A stretch of 10,152 nucleotides of DNA from a virus (IMGVR_UViG_2534681939_000019), one strand, 5' to 3'; counted from the first letter of the stretch, positions 2,499 through 9,102 are shown. Notes: a model not told the origin generated them from the letters alone. Numbers and translations are program-made.

Positions 2499-2620
2499 TG
2501 GGGTGGCTAATGATATCAGATAAACTCATAACGCTGGTGAAGAGCCTCTGTGTACTTGTCGGCATTTCATTTTTAGTCATGCTGGTTGCCATTTTCTTTC
2601 CACCGCCTGGCGAGTCCTGA
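2498..2620 (+). CDS. Candidate small single-pass membrane protein (40 aa), translationally coupled to the antirepressor-like gene
   Basis: ATG 2498 overlaps the upstream TGA (ATGA); alternative ATG at 2510 in the same frame. Product MGWLMISDKLITLVKSLCVLVGISFLVMLVAIFFPPPGES has one hydrophobic helix; too short for the ORF track. Confidence 0.3.
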   Translation: MGWLMISDKLITLVKSLCVLVGISFLVMLVAIFFPPPGES

Positions 2621-2650
2621 CGTTATCGGGACTGGTGGGGTGAAAGAGAG

Positions 2651-3122
2651 ATGAACCGTGTTCTGTGTGTGGTGATTATTGTCATGGCGGTTGGACTGTG
2701 GTGCGCTGTGGCCTGGGCAACAAACCATTACCGTGACTACGCGCTCACCTACAAAGCGCAGCGCGATAAAAAAGCCAGAGAGACTGGAACAGGCGAATGC
2801 CACCATTACTGACATGCAGGTGCGCCAGCGTGATGTTGCTGCGCTCGATGCAAAATACTCGAGGGAATTAGCCGATGCGAGAGCTGAAAATGAAACTCTG
2901 CGTGCTGATGTTGCCGCTGGTCGTAAGCGCCTGCGGATCAACGCCACCTGCCCCGGTACCGTGCGTGAAGCCACCGGCACCTCCGGCGTGGGCAATGATG
3001 CCGCCGTCGAACTCTCTCCGGTTGCTGGACGAAACGTTCTCGGTATCAGAGACGGAATCATCAGCGACCAGGCAGCATTGAGAATGCTTCAGGAATATAT
3101 CCGCACTCAGTGTATTAACTAG
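2651..3122 (+). pseudogene. Rz: Rz i-spanin, reading frame disrupted by an apparent 1-bp insertion near 2783
   Basis: ATG 2651 gives MNRVLCVVIIVMAVGLWCAVAWATNHYRDYALTYKAQRDKKARE (transmembrane N-terminus, lambda Rz-like) then stops at 2810-2812. The +1 frame continues LEQANATITDMQVRQRDVAALDAKYSRELADARAENETLRADVAAGRKRL...EYIRTQCIN to TAG 3120-3122, matching lambda Rz. Confidence 0.8.
2875..3081 (+). CDS. Rz1: Rz1 o-spanin lipoprotein, embedded in the +1 frame of Rz
   Basis: MRELKMKLCVLMLPLVVSACGSTPPAPVPCVKPPAPPAWAMMPP: lipobox LVVSAC and proline-rich segment as in lambda Rz1; lies wholly inside Rz in the +1 frame. Confidence 0.7.
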   Translation: MRELKMKLCVLMLPLVVSACGSTPPAPVPCVKPPAPPAWAMMPPSNSLRLLDETFSVSETESSATRQH

Positions 3123-3146
3123 TATTTTTGTTATTCGGAGAATGCA

Positions 3147-3370
3147 TGAAGAAATTATTGGTAACCGTAAAGCCTTTTCAGGGAACAATTCCGTTCCGTA
3201 TTTTGCAGCGTGGTCGTGTTCTTGTTGAAGGTTCGTTCAGTGGTAAATGTACGCAATTACACTCCAGGACCTTTCAGGTGAATGCCACGAATGAAGAGCT
3301 AACCGTTGAGTGTACGATGAATGCCGCTAAATGCCGCATGGTATCCGCTGCATTACAGCCAGTGTGTTGA
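3147..3370 (+). CDS. Hypothetical small protein (74 aa)
   Basis: ATG 3147 (MKKLLVTVKPFQG...) has GGAGAA 6 nt upstream; it is the internal start of track ORF 3128..3370. No motif recognised and no signal peptide, so it is not Bor-like. Confidence 0.4.
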
Positions 3371-3726
3371 GCGACCTTATTATTCATGCGCGGTATTGTC
3401 GCCGTATTCCTGCATTAACAGAGACCGCAGCCCGACCGGGAGAATCCTCTGCGCGAGTGTGCGGGGATAATCAAAAACGATACACACCGGGGTTTACCGC
3501 GTTAACGGAGCGCGGCGTTGTCCCCTCATGGTCGCTGGTCCGGTGCGATGGTGGAAGAAGCCGGATGTTTATCACTATTAATTGATAACACAGAAATGGA
3601 TTCATTGGTTTTCAGCACGTTTTTGTATTCGTATTATTGAACATCTGTTTATTTTACTTTTAACATATTGATAATAAAAAGAGCTGTAAATCATTAGATG
3701 AGTCGATTTTGTCCGGGGAAGTTCAA

Positions 3727-3879
3727 ATGGATTTTATGCTGACGGTTTCTGGTGTGGTTATCCTGTCCATTGCTTATACTGCAGATAAATATGGCTGCCA
3801 TTTGTTATCACGTATTGGCGCTTATTGCTCGTTGATGCTGATTTCCTCGTCGCTTTTTTTGAGTAAGTTATATTAATTA
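3727..3879 (+). CDS. Candidate small hydrophobic protein (49 aa) inside an AT-rich island
   Basis: ATG 3727 with GGGGAAG 5 nt upstream; product MDFMLTVSGVVILSIAYTADKYGCHLLSRIGAYCSLMLISSSLFLSKLY has two hydrophobic stretches. Short and AT-rich, so it could be spurious. Confidence 0.25.
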
Positions 3880-4001
3880 TAACAAATAATTTTCTGTGTT
3901 TTTTCAGGCTATCCCGTCAGACGGGAAGCCTGTACTGCCGGGGGACGAATGGAAAACTGATGTGTCCGGTAAACTGTGTGTTCTTGTGAACACCATGTTA
4001 C

Positions 4002-4184
4002 TTAATTAATGTAATTCATACCCGAACGCTCTGTTGACAGCCTTCTTCTGCAGGCTTCAATAACCCACGCTGAAAAGTTACCGGAACCTTTATGTTCAAG
4101 GGCGATATTGATCTGTTCAATCATGTGATTGGGGAAACGGATATTGCGGATTGTGGTTCTGCGGGTCCGGTTTTTCGATGACAT
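4002..4184 (-). CDS. Small ribbon-helix-helix-like DNA-binding protein (YlcI/YnfO DUF3950-like)
   Basis: 60-aa minus-strand ORF MSSKNRTRRTTIRNIRFPNHMIEQINIALEHKGSGNFSAWVIEACRRRL...: basic N-terminus, a beta-strand-like RNIRF, then two helices. SD AGAGGAAAG lies just upstream of the ATG on the minus strand. Resemblance to K-12 prophage YlcI/YnfO is from memory. Confidence 0.6.
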   Translation of the reverse strand: MSSKNRTRRTTIRNIRFPNHMIEQINIALEHKGSGNFSAWVIEACRRRLSTERSGMNYIN

Positions 4185-4225
4185 TTTCTTTCCTCTGGTG
4201 ACAAGCTATATGGCGAGGATTTTAC

Positions 4226-4768
4226 ATGGCTGTGCTTCGTACGTTACCGGGCAGAATCAAAACTCTGAACACCCGGCGGATAAATGTCCTGAGGGGGGAA
4301 CAGCGTCGTGTCAGTGGCAGTGCCCGGGTTTCCCTCAAACGTCGTATCTGGCGGAGGGATGCCGGACACTGTTGTCTCTGTAGACGCGTGGTTGACCTTC
4401 GTGACAGTGAACTCGATCACCGCATTGCACTTCAGTTCGGTGGTGGTAATGAGGAGACGAACCTCTGGACCCTCTGTACTGAATGCCATCGCCAGAAGTC
4501 AGCGAGTGAAGCGGCGAGTGGTATGCCTGATCCGACGTTGCCTGAGCTTCCTGATGGCACGCTCAGGGCCGACGGAATCACTCGGCCTGTGACCACGACC
4601 CGGGGGGGGATCATCCGGCGAAAAAAAACGATCGCCCTGGACACCGCGCCCCCTCTCACGCAGAGAAAAAATTCCCGTTTCAGGGCAGTTAACATGTTAA
4701 CTGGCTGCCCGGGCATTTTTGCGGTTTTTATCTTTATTATTCAGTTTGTTGTGCGGAAAAAATGTTAA
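4226..4768 (+). CDS. HNH endonuclease (terminase-associated, HK97 gp74-like) with an unusually long C-terminal tail
   Basis: HNH motif HCCLCRRVVDLRDSELDHRIALQFGGGNEETNLWTLCTECHRQK; SD GAGGA 7 nt before ATG 4226; directly upstream of terS. The last 60-80 codons run through G8 and A8 homopolymers and into the palindrome array, so the true stop is uncertain. Confidence 0.75.
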   Translation: MAVLRTLPGRIKTLNTRRINVLRGEQRRVSGSARVSLKRRIWRRDAGHCCLCRRVVDLRDSELDHRIALQFGGGNEETNLWTLCTECHRQKSASEAASGMPDPTLPELPDGTLRADGITRPVTTTRGGIIRRKKTIALDTAPPLTQRKNSRFRAVNMLTGCPGIFAVFIFIIQFVVRKKC

Positions 4769-4814
4769 CAGGCTTTTTCAGCAAATGTTAACCAGGCAGC
4801 AGTTAACATTTGCG
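4683..4814. repeat. Array of GTTAAC-containing inverted repeats between HNH and terS; candidate cos / terminase recognition region
   Basis: Perfect 18-bp palindrome CAGTTAACATGTTAACTG at 4686-4703; AATGTTAACA at 4761-4770; 12-bp inverted arms GCAAATGTTAAC (4781-4792) and GTTAACATTTGC (4802-4813) around a 9-bp spacer. Five copies of ATGTTAAC-like half-sites lie within about 130 bp. Confidence 0.55.
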
Positions 4815-4883: not shown

Positions 4884-5447
4884 GTGCTGACAACGCAAAA
4901 ACGAAAATTTGCGCTGGCGCTCATGTCCGGGAAAAACAAAACAGCGTCAGCCATTGCCGCCGGTTATTCGGCGAAGACCGCCAGGGTTAAAGGCTCGCAG
5001 CTGGCAAAAGATCCTGAGGTGCTTGCGTTTATAGCCCGTAAACAATGCGAGACGGTGGAGGTGGATGAGGTTCCTGTTTACCGGCAGAAAAAATCAGAGC
5101 AGGAGGATAAACCCCGTCGCCGTGAGGCGGCTGCAATACCACAGCCGGACGAAAACAATCTGGAGATGCCACCGTCCGCGGTGATGTCTCCTGGTATTGA
5201 ATATATGGAGGATGGTCTTCCCGATCCGGTGAAAGCCATGGGGCGGATCCTGGTGGAAAACCTCTGCATTGATCCGAAACTGGCACTGGATGCGGCCTGG
5301 CGTCTGGCGCAGTTCACGCACCATAAAAAAGGGGATACCGGGAAAAAATCGGCAAAAGGTGATGCCGCGAAAAAAGCGGCTAACCGTTTTGCGGTGCCAC
5401 CGCCACCCCGACTGGTGGTGAATAACGATAATGAGGGCAACGGATGA
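4884..5447 (+). CDS. terS: Terminase small subunit (Terminase_2-like, N-terminal HTH)
   Basis: MLTTQKRKFALALMSGKNKTASAIAAGYSAKTARVKGSQLAKDPEVLAFI fits the TerS HTH pattern (AGYS.KTA...GS.L). GTG 4884 follows GGGAGGAGG (4873-4881); an in-frame ATG at 4833 is an alternative start without a good SD. Stop overlaps the terL start (ATGA at 5444-5447). Confidence 0.8.
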   Translation: MLTTQKRKFALALMSGKNKTASAIAAGYSAKTARVKGSQLAKDPEVLAFIARKQCETVEVDEVPVYRQKKSEQEDKPRRREAAAIPQPDENNLEMPPSAVMSPGIEYMEDGLPDPVKAMGRILVENLCIDPKLALDAAWRLAQFTHHKKGDTGKKSAKGDAAKKAANRFAVPPPPRLVVNNDNEGNG

Positions 5448-7105
5448 TACCTGTATGGAGCACAGCCTGCCCGGACTGGGCAGAGCGCCTGAAAAAGGGG
5501 CTGTCGATTATTCCGGATCCGATTTATCCGGACGAGGCCGCACATGCCCTGGCGATTTTTAAACAACTGCGGATTGTGGATGCACCTGGTAGCCCTACGT
5601 TCGGGGAGTCCTGTGCACCGTGGGTGTTTGACCTGGTGGCGGCCCTGTTTGGCTCCTACGATGCGCAGACCGGTGTACGCCATATCAAGGAAGTTTTTAT
5701 CCTTATCCCCAAGAAAAACAGCAAGTCCACGCTGGCCGCGGGGATCATGATGACTGCACTGTTACTGAACTGGCGGCAGGCGGCGGGTTACACGATTCTG
5801 GCCCCGACTGTGGAGGTGGCGGCCAACGCCTTCAACCCTGCCCGGGATATGGTACGACGGGACGATGATCTGGATGACCTCTGCCAGGTACAGACCCATA
5901 TCCGGACCATCACCCACCGGGTGACGGACACCACCCTGAAGGTGGTGGCAGCCGATCCGAATACGGTGTCCGGTATCAAGTCCGTGGGTACGCTGATTGA
6001 TGAGTTGTGGCTGTTTGGCAAGCAGTGCAAGGCGGAGGACATGTTACGTGAAGCCATAGGCGGCCTTGCCTCCCGCCCGGAAGGGTTTGTGGTGTATACG
6101 ACCACCCAGTCGAATGAACCGCCCGCCGGGGTGTTCAGACAGAAACTGCAGTACGCCCGGGATGTGCGCGACGGCAAAATTCATGATCCGCACTTTCTGC
6201 CGGTGATATTTGAACACCCTCCTGAAATGGTGGAAAGCGGGGCTAACCTGCTGATGGAAAACCTCGCCATGGTCAATCCGAATCTCGGCTATTCAGTGGA
6301 TGAGGCCTTTCTGTACCGGGAGTACCGTAAAGCCCGGGAAGCCGGTGAAGAGACATTCCGGGGGTTCATGTCAAAACACGCCAATGTGGAAATTGGTCTT
6401 GCCCTGCGCTCTGACCGCTGGGCGGGGGCTGATTTCTGGGAAGAGCAGGGCCGTTGTATCAGCCTGGACGATATCCTGCGTCGTGCTGATGTGGTGACGG
6501 TGGGGATTGACGGCGGAGGGCTGGATGATCTGCTGGGGATGTATGTGATTGGGCGTGACCGGGAGACCCGCGAATGGCTGGGCTGGGGCCATGCCTGGGC
6601 GCATGGAACCGCGGTGGTCAGACGGAAGAGTGAGGCATCCCGTTTTCAGGATTTTGTGGCCTGTGGAGACATGACGATTGTCCGTCGGGTCGGGGATGAC
6701 ACGGCGGAAGTGGCGGAATATGTGCGTCGCATTCATGAGGCTGAGTTACTGGACCATATCGGTATTGACCCGTCAGGTGTGGGGCAGATTCTGGATTCAC
6801 TGGCGGAAGCCGGGATCCCCGACGGAATTGTTGTGGGGATAAGCCAGGGCTGGAAGCTGGGCGGGGCCATTAAAACCACCGAGCGCAAACTGGCTGAGGG
6901 AGTACTGGTGCATGGTGGTCAGCCACTGATGGCCTGGTGCGTTGGCAATGCCCGGGTGGAGCCTAAAGGTAACGCTATCCTTATTACCAAACAGGCCAGC
7001 GGACGGGGGAAAATTGACCCGCTGATGGCGCTCTTCAATGCGGTCTCCCTGATGTCCCTTAACCCGGAACCGAAAAAGAAAGAATATGCGGTTTTTTTCA
7101 TATAA
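5444..7105 (+). CDS. terL: Terminase large subunit (ATPase plus nuclease)
   Basis: 553-aa ORF; P-loop-like LIPKKNSKST near the N-terminus, acidic patches in the ATPase region, C-terminal nuclease region with VTVGIDGGG and DPSG. Translationally coupled to terS. Confidence 0.9.
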   Translation: MIPVWSTACPDWAERLKKGLSIIPDPIYPDEAAHALAIFKQLRIVDAPGSPTFGESCAPWVFDLVAALFGSYDAQTGVRHIKEVFILIPKKNSKSTLAAGIMMTALLLNWRQAAGYTILAPTVEVAANAFNPARDMVRRDDDLDDLCQVQTHIRTITHRVTDTTLKVVAADPNTVSGIKSVGTLIDELWLFGKQCKAEDMLREAIGGLASRPEGFVVYTTTQSNEPPAGVFRQKLQYARDVRDGKIHDPHFLPVIFEHPPEMVESGANLLMENLAMVNPNLGYSVDEAFLYREYRKAREAGEETFRGFMSKHANVEIGLALRSDRWAGADFWEEQGRCISLDDILRRADVVTVGIDGGGLDDLLGMYVIGRDRETREWLGWGHAWAHGTAVVRRKSEASRFQDFVACGDMTIVRRVGDDTAEVAEYVRRIHEAELLDHIGIDPSGVGQILDSLAEAGIPDGIVVGISQGWKLGGAIKTTERKLAEGVLVHGGQPLMAWCVGNARVEPKGNAILITKQASGRGKIDPLMALFNAVSLMSLNPEPKKKEYAVFFI

Positions 7106-7167: not shown

Positions 7168-7746
7168 GTGACTCTTAAACGGGCCTGTTCCCTGCTGACG
7201 GTGAAATCCTTCAGCGAGGATGAACGGGTGATCACCGGGATTGCGTCAACGCCTTCTCCGGATCGGGATGGTGACATCCTGGAGCCGGAGGGGGCGGAGT
7301 TTGGCTGTGCGATCCCGTTTCTCTGGCAGCATGACTATTCCCGTCCGGTGGGCCAGTGTACGGTACGCCGGGTCAGTGAAGGTCTGGAAATCACGGCAAC
7401 ACTGGTGAAGCCCGTACCGGATATGCCGTCGCAACTGGCTGCCCGGCTGGATGAGGCCTGGGCGGCCATTAAGACCGGGCTGGTCAGGGGGCTGTCCGTG
7501 GGCTTCCGTCCCCATGAATACACCTCTCTGGACGGAGGCGGACTGCATTTTCTGCGCTGGGAACTGATGGAGGTGTCTGCCGTCACCGTGCCCGCGAATG
7601 CGGAATGCACCATCCGGACCATTAAATCTTACGACCGCCCGTTTTCTGCCGCGTCCGGCAACCGGAAACCGGTGGTGAAAATCGCATCTTCTGCCGGCGC
7701 TGCGGCACAGTCAACAACCGCTTTTCATAAGGAAAAGACAGAATGA
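7168..7746 (+). CDS. HK97-family prohead protease (peptidase S78/U35)
   Basis: GTG 7168 with AGGAGG 5 nt upstream; VITGIASTPSPDRDGDILEPEG ... FLWQHD ... GLSVGFRPHEY ... MEVSAVTVPANAECTI is the typical motif order of the HK97 protease family. Confidence 0.85.
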   Translation: MTLKRACSLLTVKSFSEDERVITGIASTPSPDRDGDILEPEGAEFGCAIPFLWQHDYSRPVGQCTVRRVSEGLEITATLVKPVPDMPSQLAARLDEAWAAIKTGLVRGLSVGFRPHEYTSLDGGGLHFLRWELMEVSAVTVPANAECTIRTIKSYDRPFSAASGNRKPVVKIASSAGAAAQSTTAFHKEKTE

Positions 7747-7812
7747 ATATTGGCGAACAGATAAAAGTTTTGAAACAAGCGTGCGGCGCTGGCAGCCTCC
7801 CTTGAGGAGGTC

Positions 7813-9102
7813 ATGACCAAAGCCGCAGAGGAAGGGCGCACGCTGGATGTGGAGGAGGAAGAGCATTACGACAACACCGCAGCGGAAATCCGTCAGGTGG
7901 ATGCGCACCTGAAGCGCCTGCGTGAACTGGAAGCCGGTAAGGCCGCCACGGCGCAGCCGGTGAAACAGGCCGGTAACGGGAATGTGGCCGCGGTGGCTTC
8001 TGCGCCGGTGATCCGTGTGGAGCAGAAACTGGATAAGGGGATTGGCTTCGCCCGCTTTGCCAAATCGCTGGCTGCGGCTAAAGGCGTCCGATCTGAAGCC
8101 CTGGAAGTGGCCCGTCGTCAGTATCCGGATGACAGTCGTCTGCATCATGTCCTGAAATCGGCAGTGGGCGCAGGGACCACCACGGATCCACAGTGGGCAG
8201 GCAGCCTGTCTGAATATCAGGAATACGCACAGGACTTTATTGATTACCTGCGTCCGCAGACCATTATCGGGCGATTTGGTCAGGGCGGGATCCCTGCACT
8301 TCGTCAGGTGCCATTCAATATCCGCGTGCACGCCCAGGTGTCCGGCGGTGCTGCCGGCTGGGTGGGGGAGGGTAAGGCAAAACCCCTGACGAAGTTTGAT
8401 TTTGAATCCATCACCTTCAGTCATGCGAAGGTGTCGGCCATTGCGGTACTGACGGAAGAACTGATCCGCTTTTCCAGTCCGGCAGCTGATGCACTGGTCC
8501 GTAATGCGCTGGCAGAAGCGGTGGTGGCGCGTCTGGACACAGACTTTGTGGACCCGAAAAAAGCTGCAGTGGCAGATGTCTCCCCGGCGTCCATCACCCA
8601 TGATGTGAAGGGCACGGCATCAACCGGTAACCCGGATGCGGATGCCGAGGCCGCGTTTGGCCAGTTTGTGACGGCAAATCTGCAGCCCACCGGTGCTGTC
8701 TGGCTGATGTCCAGCACCAATGCCCTGGCACTGTCCATGCGTAAAAATGCGCTGGGTCAGAAGGAATATCCGGACATGACCCTGCTGGGCGGGATCTTTC
8801 AGGGGCTTCCGGTGATTGTCTCCCAGTATGTGGGTGACCAGCTGGTGCTGGTGAATGCCCCGGATATTTATCTGGCGGATGACGGCGGCGTGGCAGTGGA
8901 TATGTCCCGCGAAGCATCACTGGAAATGCAGTCTGAGCCGACCGGCGACAGTACCACGCCGTCCCCGGTGGAGCTGGTTTCCATGTTCCAGACAGGCAGC
9001 GTGGCCATCCGTGCGGAGCGCTGGATCAACTGGCGTCGTCGCCGTACTGCGGCGGTGGCGGTGATCACCGGAGTGAACTACGGCAGTGCGTCCGGCGGCT
9101 GA
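7813..9102 (+). CDS. HK97-fold major capsid protein; the true N-terminus probably starts at ATG 7743 in another frame (apparent frameshift)
   Basis: 429-aa ORF with a coiled-coil-like N-terminal delta region (EIRQVDAHLKRLRELEAG) and Gly/Ala-rich capsid body, placed directly after the protease. ATG 7743 overlaps the protease stop (ATGA) and encodes MNIGEQIKVLKQ before a frame change near 7773-7776. Confidence 0.85.
   Translation: MTKAAEEGRTLDVEEEEHYDNTAAEIRQVDAHLKRLRELEAGKAATAQPVKQAGNGNVAAVASAPVIRVEQKLDKGIGFARFAKSLAAAKGVRSEALEVARRQYPDDSRLHHVLKSAVGAGTTTDPQWAGSLSEYQEYAQDFIDYLRPQTIIGRFGQGGIPALRQVPFNIRVHAQVSGGAAGWVGEGKAKPLTKFDFESITFSHAKVSAIAVLTEELIRFSSPAADALVRNALAEAVVARLDTDFVDPKKAAVADVSPASITHDVKGTASTGNPDADAEAAFGQFVTANLQPTGAVWLMSSTNALALSMRKNALGQKEYPDMTLLGGIFQGLPVIVSQYVGDQLVLVNAPDIYLADDGGVAVDMSREASLEMQSEPTGDSTTPSPVELVSMFQTGSVAIRAERWINWRRRRTAAVAVITGVNYGSASGG

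Follow-up and report, generated by a model that had tools for sequence, protein, structure and literature searches.

A moron is recognized by five features, namely, extra DNA, deviant composition, its own promoter, its own terminator, and expression from the repressed prophage (Juhala et al. 2000, summarised in PMC3594210), and one such unit, in phage HK97, encodes gp15, a small protein of the inner membrane by which superinfecting phages are excluded (PMC3594210). Here, we analysed a stretch of 10,152 nucleotides of Escherichia coli prophage DNA (the window), in which an AT-rich island holds a small open reading frame (ORF) corresponding to ECs1538. This gene has long been annotated, under the label hypothetical in the genome record of Sakai, and has never been characterized; within the literature searched, neither ECs1538 nor WP_000347013 is named in the main text of any paper. 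In phage lambda, the bor moron sits between the lysis and packaging genes, roughly the position of the cassette described below. Four of the five moron features were found in the stretch, which resembles HK97 gene 15 and lambda bor in being extra DNA between conserved flanks, with deviant composition, its own promoter, and transcription from the repressed prophage (the last from PMC5597208). A small, envelope-directed product, predicted for ECs1538, is a further likeness. Unlike gp15/YebO and Bor, ECs1538 has no sequence relation to these proteins (no Pfam or PHROG match), and its unit differs from both morons in having no recognizable terminator and a product of 46 amino acids (aa) with two helices. 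Small membrane proteins of the E. coli chromosome offer another comparison: AcrZ, MgtS, and KdpF are alpha-helical, membrane-embedded proteins of fewer than 50 aa, with a single helix and known partners, and such proteins typically bind larger membrane proteins. ECs1538 is likewise shorter than 50 aa and predicted to be helical and membrane-embedded, whereas it is prophage-borne, has two predicted helices, and has no known partner.

The window belongs to the late region of a lambdoid E. coli prophage and contains, in order, a fragmented endolysin, an antirepressor-like gene, Rz/Rz1, the island, a ylcI/ynfO-family gene, an HNH endonuclease, TerS, TerL, a prohead protease, and the capsid gene. 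Positions 2601-4800 share ~99% identity with a prophage of E. coli O157:H7 PV15-279 and 98.6% identity with phage PPyecE_EH1910, and an exact-sequence look-up identified the 49-aa product of the window as EHU94478.1 (ECDEC3F_1362) from a draft contig of E. coli DEC3F, to which the window corresponds in full. Compared with the Sakai prophage Sp6, the window has ~27 single-base indel positions, which interrupt the endolysin, HNH, and protease-capsid frames and are probably draft-sequencing errors. The features of the locus are listed in Table 1.

Table 1. Features of the AT-rich island and its surroundings, in window coordinates. The last column gives RNA (RPKM), ribosome footprints (RPKM), ribosomal coverage value (RCV, footprint RPKM divided by RNA RPKM), and coverage in LB, from PMC5597208 Table S2.
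Feature	Position	Strand	Description and basis	RNA; footprints; RCV; coverage
Conserved GC-rich block (old annotation ECs1537)	3384-3565		Left anchor of insertion hot spot; 94-96% identity in JLK-2012, BP-4795, and SHP24	
ECs1537	3367-3585			3.0; 2.1; 0.95; 0.18
Replaceable cassette (moron slot)	3566-4029 (about)		AT-rich core plus last ~9 codons of the ylcI/ynfO-family gene; BLAST breakpoints	
Best candidate sigma-70 promoter	3637-3666	+	TTGAAC (3637-3642), 18-nt spacer, TAACAT (3661-3666); sequence read, 8 of 12 matches	
Shine-Dalgarno-like GGGGAAG	3715-3721	+	~7 nt before ATG; sequence read	
Small ORF, 49 aa, MDFMLTVSGVVILSIAYTADKYGCHLLSRIGAYCSLMLISSSLFLSKLY	3727-3876	+	Window's own version of ECs1538	
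ECs1538	3727-3867			57.6; 26.1; 0.46; 0.98
Homopolymer T run	3854-3860	+	Fixes the C-terminus; T7 here	
Extended -10-like TGTTATAAT	3884-3876	-	Allele A only; would start RNA antisense to the ORF	
XECs147	about 3871-4032			37.9; 19.2; 0.52; 0.60
Downstream ORF, counterpart of published RIBO-seq candidate XECs148	3896-4009	+	Coordinates converted from PMC5597208	
XECs148	about 3897-4001			50.0; 17.9; 0.37; 0.72
Imperfect hairpin CAGGC..CCCG-TCAGA-CGGG..GCCTG	3905-3932		T run precedes stem; no canonical terminator on either strand	
ylcI/ynfO-family gene (DUF3950), ECs1539	4002-4184	-	Pfam PF13132, E = 8e-20; NCBIfam NF041551	
ECs1539	about 3997-4182			45.6; 11.1; 0.25; 0.65

The GC content over 3501-3900 (0.38, 0.34, and 0.37 in 200-nt segments) is the minimum of all 10,152 nt. 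Upstream of the island it is 0.53-0.54 and downstream 0.44-0.55 (0.44-0.48 just downstream), and the cassette as a whole has a GC content of 0.36, with an AT skew of -0.23 to -0.33 on the T-rich strand of the island. An earlier note on this DNA, made from the sequence alone, had described the island as much more AT-rich than its flanks and suggested a separately acquired moron, and both points were borne out. BLAST of the window against related phages (L003, L004, and L005) placed the homology breakpoints at 3565/3572 and 4030/4050, so that the right junction falls within the 3' end of the ylcI/ynfO-family gene. On the left, the GC-rich block is kept in JLK-2012, BP-4795, and SHP24, although the DNA rightward of it differs. 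Between the flanks, the window carries 457 bp, vB_EcoS-569R3 only 42 bp that encode nothing, BP-4795 266 bp (~175 bp of it without a convincing gene), and JLK-2012 653 bp with a gene for a TonB-C-like lipoprotein. Related phages share the flanks, and the slot itself is nearly empty in them or filled with a different insert.

The island was found, at 95-99% identity, in 734 of 5,426 complete E. coli genomes, the carriers including O157:H7, O145, O55:H7, and ST131 strains, and in two of 50,697 phage records; it was absent from the plasmid collection PLSDB. Its 797 matches are far fewer than those of the flanks (5,674 places in 1,615 genomes), indicating that the island is one among alternative inserts of the hot spot. 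Besides, the module of promoter and ORF occurs in three packaging-gene contexts, that is, ynfO-HNH-TerS-TerL as in the window, ynfO-Nu1-A, and, where the ynfO-family gene is lacking, immediately ahead of a 91-aa ORF and TerL. Three alleles of the ORF were distinguished: allele A (the O157 type, our reference for identities), allele B (strain SHP24 and relatives, MGLMLTIAGVIVLFIACNADKYGYPLLSRIGAYCALILIFSSLFF; 71% aa identity to A), and allele C (P0015/P0007; 89% aa identity to A). Allele C accounts for 152 contigs of the cluster table and 250 collection blocks of the contig index. We also considered a MITE-like mobile element and rejected it: a 10-nt inverted repeat (3587-3596/3891-3900) frames the module, ~0.35 such pairs are expected by chance (an estimate), and the repeat is not conserved in allele B.

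The ORF with a Shine-Dalgarno sequence (SD) and two hydrophobic segments, noted earlier, is present, although its length of 49 aa is peculiar to this contig. Canonical ECs1538 is WP_000347013.1, a 46-aa protein (MDFMLTVSGVVILSIAYTADKYGCHLLSRIGAYCSLMLIFSSLFFE) ending in ...LIFSSLFFE, which is RefSeq-annotated in Sakai (ECs_1538; 1,561,112-1,561,252, prophage Sp6). The three additional residues arise because the window has a T7 instead of a T8 run: the run is T8 in 98 of 101 loci, T9 in two, and T7 in the window only, and the resulting C-termini are ...LFFE, ...LFF, and ...LFLSKLY, respectively. CGGGGAA and the ATG were invariant in all five aligned allele sequences, and a published table places an SD of ECs1538 4 nt upstream with a dG of -3.6 (PMC5597208 Table S4).

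In 47% of dinucleotide-preserving shuffles of the island, an ORF of 46 or more codons starting with ATG arose, so the length of the ORF alone is within chance. This raises the question of a fortuitous ORF, in which the T-rich strand of an AT-rich moron simply yields a hydrophobic frame (the AT skew of the island favours hydrophobic codons) and the functional part is the RNA, the promoter, or, under pervasive transcription, nothing at all. A C-terminus that varies with homopolymer length would fit this explanation too.

Expression data for the locus come from strand-specific RNA-seq and RIBO-seq of uninduced Sakai (Hücker et al. 2017; PMC5597208), which we placed on the window by subtracting 1,557,244 from the old coordinates; every neighbouring ORF was placed correctly by this conversion. 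In LB, RNA rises 19-fold from ECs1537, which is nearly silent in lysogens (3.0 RPKM; PMC5597208), to ECs1538, implying a promoter within the island. ECs1538 RNA and footprints were 32.7 and 7.3 RPKM in BHI, and the gene was nearly off under cold plus salt (2.1 and 0.6 RPKM; PMC5597208). The same authors list a BPROM promoter (LDF 8) 205/231 bp upstream of XECs147/XECs148, which corresponds to about position 3666 of the window (PMC5597208), the end of our best candidate. That candidate scores below the cut-off of the promoter scan, and the scan's own plus-strand candidate (3609-3637) is not conserved in allele B. Indeed, promoter-like matches within 3300-4300 were about as frequent as in shuffles (two found versus 1.6 expected), and the case for a promoter therefore rests on conservation and on the published RNA-seq: a 42-nt block upstream of the ORF (3641-3682), within which the candidate falls, is 93% identical between alleles A and B, whereas its surroundings are 68-73% identical. 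The earlier note's promoter-like AT-rich sequence thus gained from the conserved block and the RNA rise, though not from motif counts. Transcription of the ECs1538 island in lysogens is well supported. That this non-coding block is the best-conserved stretch is also a point in favour of a fortuitous ORF.

We found no terminator between ECs1538 and the ylcI/ynfO-family gene on either strand. On the plus strand 3' of the ORF, the sole match to an intrinsic terminator (3978-3993) is weak, and RNA is still at 38-50 RPKM downstream, so that the fifth moron feature, an own terminator, was not found. The hairpin at 3905-3932 has its pair G3916-C3922 disrupted in 37 of 49 haplotypes and is not conserved in alleles B and C. 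With regard to structured RNA, an Rfam scan of 3000-4800 at E <= 1 gave one meaningless HgcG match and nothing else, and in the GC-rich block there was neither an Rfam match nor RNA folding in excess (z = 0.0 and +1.5).

As to translation, the transcript and ribosome footprints that the earlier note had asked about are both present over the ORF in the published Sakai lysogen data (PMC5597208 Table S2). The RCV of ECs1538 is below the mean of short annotated genes (1.55; PMC5597208), and the RCVs of the non-conserved downstream ORFs resemble it, which means that the footprints do not single out ECs1538, and this similar footprint density again suits a fortuitous ORF. According to its authors, the reading frame of a single ORF is beyond the resolution of the data set (PMC5597208). 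Translation of the ECs1538 frame is thus supported only when the footprints are read together with the conservation of the frame.

Conservation of the ORF among relatives had been set beforehand as a test, and the ORF is in fact kept in diverged relatives: start codon, SD, and frame persist in three alleles that have diverged by up to 19-21%, and the motifs ADKYG and LLSRIGAYC are invariant. Over the 42 codons preceding the T run, dN/dS between alleles A and B was 0.31 (synonymous differences 11 over 31 sites, nonsynonymous 13 over 95 sites; Fisher p = 0.015), compared with 0.55 and 0.66 in the other two frames, and the synonymous divergence of 0.36 matches that of flanking non-coding DNA (0.28-0.32). 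When the 24 A/B substitutions were placed at random, frame and start survived in 32% of trials, and the frame stayed open with an equally small change in hydropathy in 1.9%. Furthermore, the 126-nt core of the ORF is free of indels, whereas the downstream part of the island has several. XECs148 served as an internal control; its frame is disrupted by stops in alleles B and C, a published classifier labels it 'pseudo' (PMC5597208), and the RNA over it is most likely a 3' untranslated region. For the close pair of alleles A and C, dN/dS ranged from 0.46 to 0.94, based on four to five changes. Judged from sequence comparison, the protein-level constraint on ECs1538 appears weak to modest, with three informative alleles, although the evidence agrees throughout in direction. 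A fortuitous ORF does not readily account for the frame-specific dN/dS, the preserved hydropathy, the invariant SD and ATG, the absence of indels from the core next to a decaying ORF, or the lack of an Rfam family and of excess or conserved RNA structure, and we consider this explanation unlikely, albeit one that deserves serious weight.

The product is a predicted membrane protein. Its hydropathy profile has two hydrophobic stretches (residues ~3-19 and ~26-45) with ADKYGCH between them, and the GRAVY of the 46- to 49-aa forms is 1.1-1.5. AlphaFold2, run on a shallow alignment, gave helices at residues 3-22 and 24-48 with a mean pLDDT of 74, and an inner-membrane protein with two transmembrane helices is also the published prediction (PMC5597208 Table S9). 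These models point to a two-helix inner-membrane hairpin, in which, by the positive-inside rule, the basic K21/R29 loop would be cytoplasmic and the acidic D2 and E46 ends periplasmic.

Searches for relatives returned only the protein's own variants. Neither the 49-aa nor the 46-aa form matched a family in Pfam, NCBIfam, PHROG, or PADLOC at E <= 1. A word-indexed search of 5.8 billion proteins found E. coli variants only, an exhaustive HMMER search of 1.84 billion representatives found only the protein's own E. coli clusters and translated-repeat artefacts, and a scan of 185,579 species-representative genomes found no relative. The ECs1538 family thus seems to be confined to E. coli and young, as would also be expected of a fortuitous ORF.

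The earlier note had likened the ORF to small membrane toxins. Under such a reading, ECs1538 would act on the inner membrane, by depolarising or permeabilising it, and an antisense RNA would restrain it, the two forming a type I toxin-antitoxin or abortive-infection module. The antisense RNA would be the 3' end of a ynfO-family transcript that reads through, or else a short transcript started from the minus-strand TGTTATAAT. ECs1538 does share with Hok/Gef, Ldr, TisB, Ibs, ShoB, DinQ, and ZorO a hydrophobic peptide of fewer than 60 aa, a location in horizontally acquired DNA (an AT-rich, prophage-borne island), and a possible antisense overlap, and its below-average RCV could mean partial translational repression. 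Unlike these toxins, it has no family match (in the comparison proposed with hok, ldr, and other small-toxin families, Hok, Ldr, TisB, and Ibs went unmatched at E <= 1), and in growing lysogens 98% of the ORF carries footprints. Two hydrophobic helices are predicted here, whereas the classical type I toxins of E. coli are single-helix peptides.

For ECs1538, unlike E. coli type I toxins, we found neither a conserved gene for an antisense RNA nor a conserved repeat, and there was little sign of a structured leader. The antisense TGTTATAAT motif, a point for the toxin reading in allele A, is present in the window, L001, and L007 but mutated in L006 (allele B) and deleted in L090/L091 (allele C), so that no antisense promoter is conserved across the three alleles. 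Folding of the single sequence placed the SD in a stem with the end of the ORF (its 3' end), no better than in shuffles (z = -1.1), and an alignment fold of five sequences only gave a single compensatory pair, with a covariation term of +0.16, for an SD-sequestering structure. Inverted or direct repeats like those of tisB/istR were not found, and repeats of 10-12 nt were at chance level and unconserved. The Sakai Hfq-CRAC catalogue contains no Hfq-bound sRNA in the island (PMC4104026 supplement); its only entries in Sp6, EcOnc33 and EcOnc54, lie kilobases away (PMC4104026). The known EHEC prophage sRNAs AgvB, AsxR, HnrS/EcOnc10-12, the Pas sRNAs, and svsR, considered as candidates, all map elsewhere. 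The toxin reading of ECs1538 is therefore possible but unsupported, with size and composition as its sole remaining positive arguments, and we rate it as quite improbable.

Polymorphisms in the ylcI/ynfO-family gene, the neighbour on the minus strand, sit at third codon positions, indicating clear purifying selection. Within the family, residues 1-49 are conserved and the tails are highly variable, because the cassette junction lies inside the 3' end of the gene and the cassette supplies the tail. The conserved core has a strand-helix-helix pattern, and residues 1-49 fit a ribbon-helix-helix (RHH) protein. The structural model was poor (pLDDT 64, no strand called), its best Foldseek matches, the RHH antitoxins ParD2 and ParD1, were non-significant (E = 2.4-6.6), and a PDB sequence search returned nothing; RHH identity is plausible but unproven.

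The earlier note had further proposed that the 3' regions of the ORF and of this convergent RHH gene could interact. The geometry is right for it, since plus-strand RNA extends over the 3' end of the ynfO-family gene (PMC5597208 data), and overlapping 3' ends of the two transcripts are likely; with the convergent arrangement and no terminator in between, these observations would suit an antisense-checked toxin as well. The same holds for the corresponding pair of K-12, ybcW-ylcI, which ExcludonFinder lists among convergent excludons (PMC12288877). As in the ECs1538 pair, a small gene on the plus strand there runs towards a ylcI/ynfO-family gene, with overlapping 3' transcription. We take this pair to lie in the DLP12 prophage at the same prophage position and with the same gene layout, and YbcW to be a soluble 68-aa protein unrelated to ECs1538. 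Unlike in an excludon, mutual exclusion is not evident between ECs1538 and ECs1539, whose RNA levels are similar in the same cultures (57.6 versus 45.6 RPKM). Moreover, any interaction would not be essential, as allele C also sits where the ynfO-family gene is missing; this allele is intact and common there, and the ynfO-family gene is thus no required antidote, which also tells against a toxin. An obligate type II-like toxin-antitoxin pairing with this gene was likewise rejected: the gene mostly occurs without the island (5,674 flank versus 797 island matches), and the island also occurs without the gene.

On balance, we lean, with somewhat better than even confidence, to the AT-rich stretch being a moron with a real small membrane-protein gene, ECs1538. 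The data show a cassette of deviant composition with its own transcription in lysogens, ribosome occupancy, and weak constraint on the protein. On this view, the cassette was inserted at a hot spot of recombination that separates lysis from packaging genes in a lambdoid prophage, and a sigma-70 promoter within the island (~3637-3666) would drive ECs1538 in the repressed prophage. The peptide would then be made, inserted into the membrane, and beneficial to the lysogen, most likely through action at the envelope, for example, by blocking the entry of other phages or by modulating a host membrane protein. We favour an envelope-level role by analogy, on account of HK97 gp15 and of the envelope proteins encoded at the same slot (the JLK-2012 lipoprotein and Bor), and do not think it likely that ECs1538 acts as an addiction-type toxin. 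A bolder proposal is that ECs1538 founds an unrecognised class of two-helix prophage inner-membrane miniproteins, which would block DNA entry by competing phages or kill the cell on infection, with their output tuned by head-on transcription of the ynfO-family gene and by slippage at the T8 run that rewrites the C-terminus; we regard this as a long shot. Readings other than a moron gene, a fortuitous ORF, or a toxin seem very improbable.

About one in seven complete E. coli genomes (734 of 5,426) carries the cassette, and uninduced EHEC transcribes it. Should the peptide be produced, ECs1538 would add a so far uncharacterised factor of lysogenic conversion to the cell envelope of a major pathogen, and would be a simple candidate for tests of phage exclusion or of membrane physiology. 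Otherwise, the locus would be a useful cautionary case, in which an AT-rich moron gives rise to a hydrophobic ORF that looks convincing. Current ideas would stand in either event.

The hot spot between the lysis and packaging genes, at which related phages carry differing inserts, is flanked on the left by a GC-rich block that was formerly annotated as ECs1537. This block was kept at 94 to 96% identity across phages that differ on both of its sides, and it was nearly untranscribed in lysogens. No Rfam match was found for the block, and its RNA structure was not in excess. We consider that it may act as a recombination anchor of the hot spot. The right junction lies inside the ylcI/ynfO-family (DUF3950) gene, and therefore each cassette gives this gene a different C-terminal tail; in this family an invariant 49-residue core is found in proteins with a length of ~48 to 105 aa.

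Features in and around the AT-rich island, with indel sites (window coordinates)
Feature	Position	Strand	Remark
GC-rich block	3384-3565		former ECs1537 annotation
10-nt inverted repeat, AACACAGAAA / TTTCTGTGTT	3587-3596 and 3891-3900		perfect
Extended -10 motif, TGTTATAAT	3876-3884	minus	perfect; directed antisense into small ORF
XECs147	about 3871-4032		published as novel translated small gene of Sakai
XECs148	3896-4009		published as novel translated small gene of Sakai
Right junction of hot spot	4002-4034		codons ~50-60 of ylcI/ynfO-family gene
Single-base indels versus Sakai Sp6	1538, 2399-2417, 2695-2783, 3853-4008, 4583-4602, 7144, 7738-7772

Within the island, the promoter and the small ORF (ECs1538) form a module bounded almost exactly by the inverted repeat. 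The frequency of this repeat was near chance expectation, and its conservation was looked for in allele B (SHP24 and relatives) and found to be absent. The antisense extended -10 motif was restricted to the O157-type allele. Both XECs147 and XECs148 occupy the 3' portion of the island. The frame of XECs148 was interrupted in alleles B and C, and XECs148 is more likely a 3' untranslated region with background footprints.

Outside the hot spot, at 1926-2498, a gene for a 190-aa antirepressor-like protein, followed by a 48-aa ORF, was observed between the endolysin and Rz genes; in relatives the antirepressor-like gene bears the annotation "phage antirepressor N-terminal domain-containing protein." These genes are an apparent further insertion, within the lysis cassette. 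The terminase genes (4950-7100) differed from those of Sakai prophage Sp6 by many substitutions (~3 to 5%), spaced mostly by multiples of three, whereas the stretch from 2600 to 4800 was ~99% identical to Sp6-type prophages; the comparison of sequences thus shows a mosaic joint near 4900.

Against Sp6 we also counted ~27 single-base indel positions, which truncate the endolysin (1121-1552), lengthen the HNH ORF (4226-4768) to 180 aa, and break the protease-capsid fusion in two (7168-7746 and 7813-9102). They resemble sequencing errors (draft or homopolymer) in the DEC3F contig, or several prophages collapsed into one consensus.

In phage JLK-2012, an alternative insert occupies the identical hot spot. 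At 2800-3141 of the phage sequence it codes for a lipoprotein of 113 aa that has a lipobox (LVMGC) and is annotated as TonB-C-like. This cassette is a second envelope-directed moron at the hot spot.
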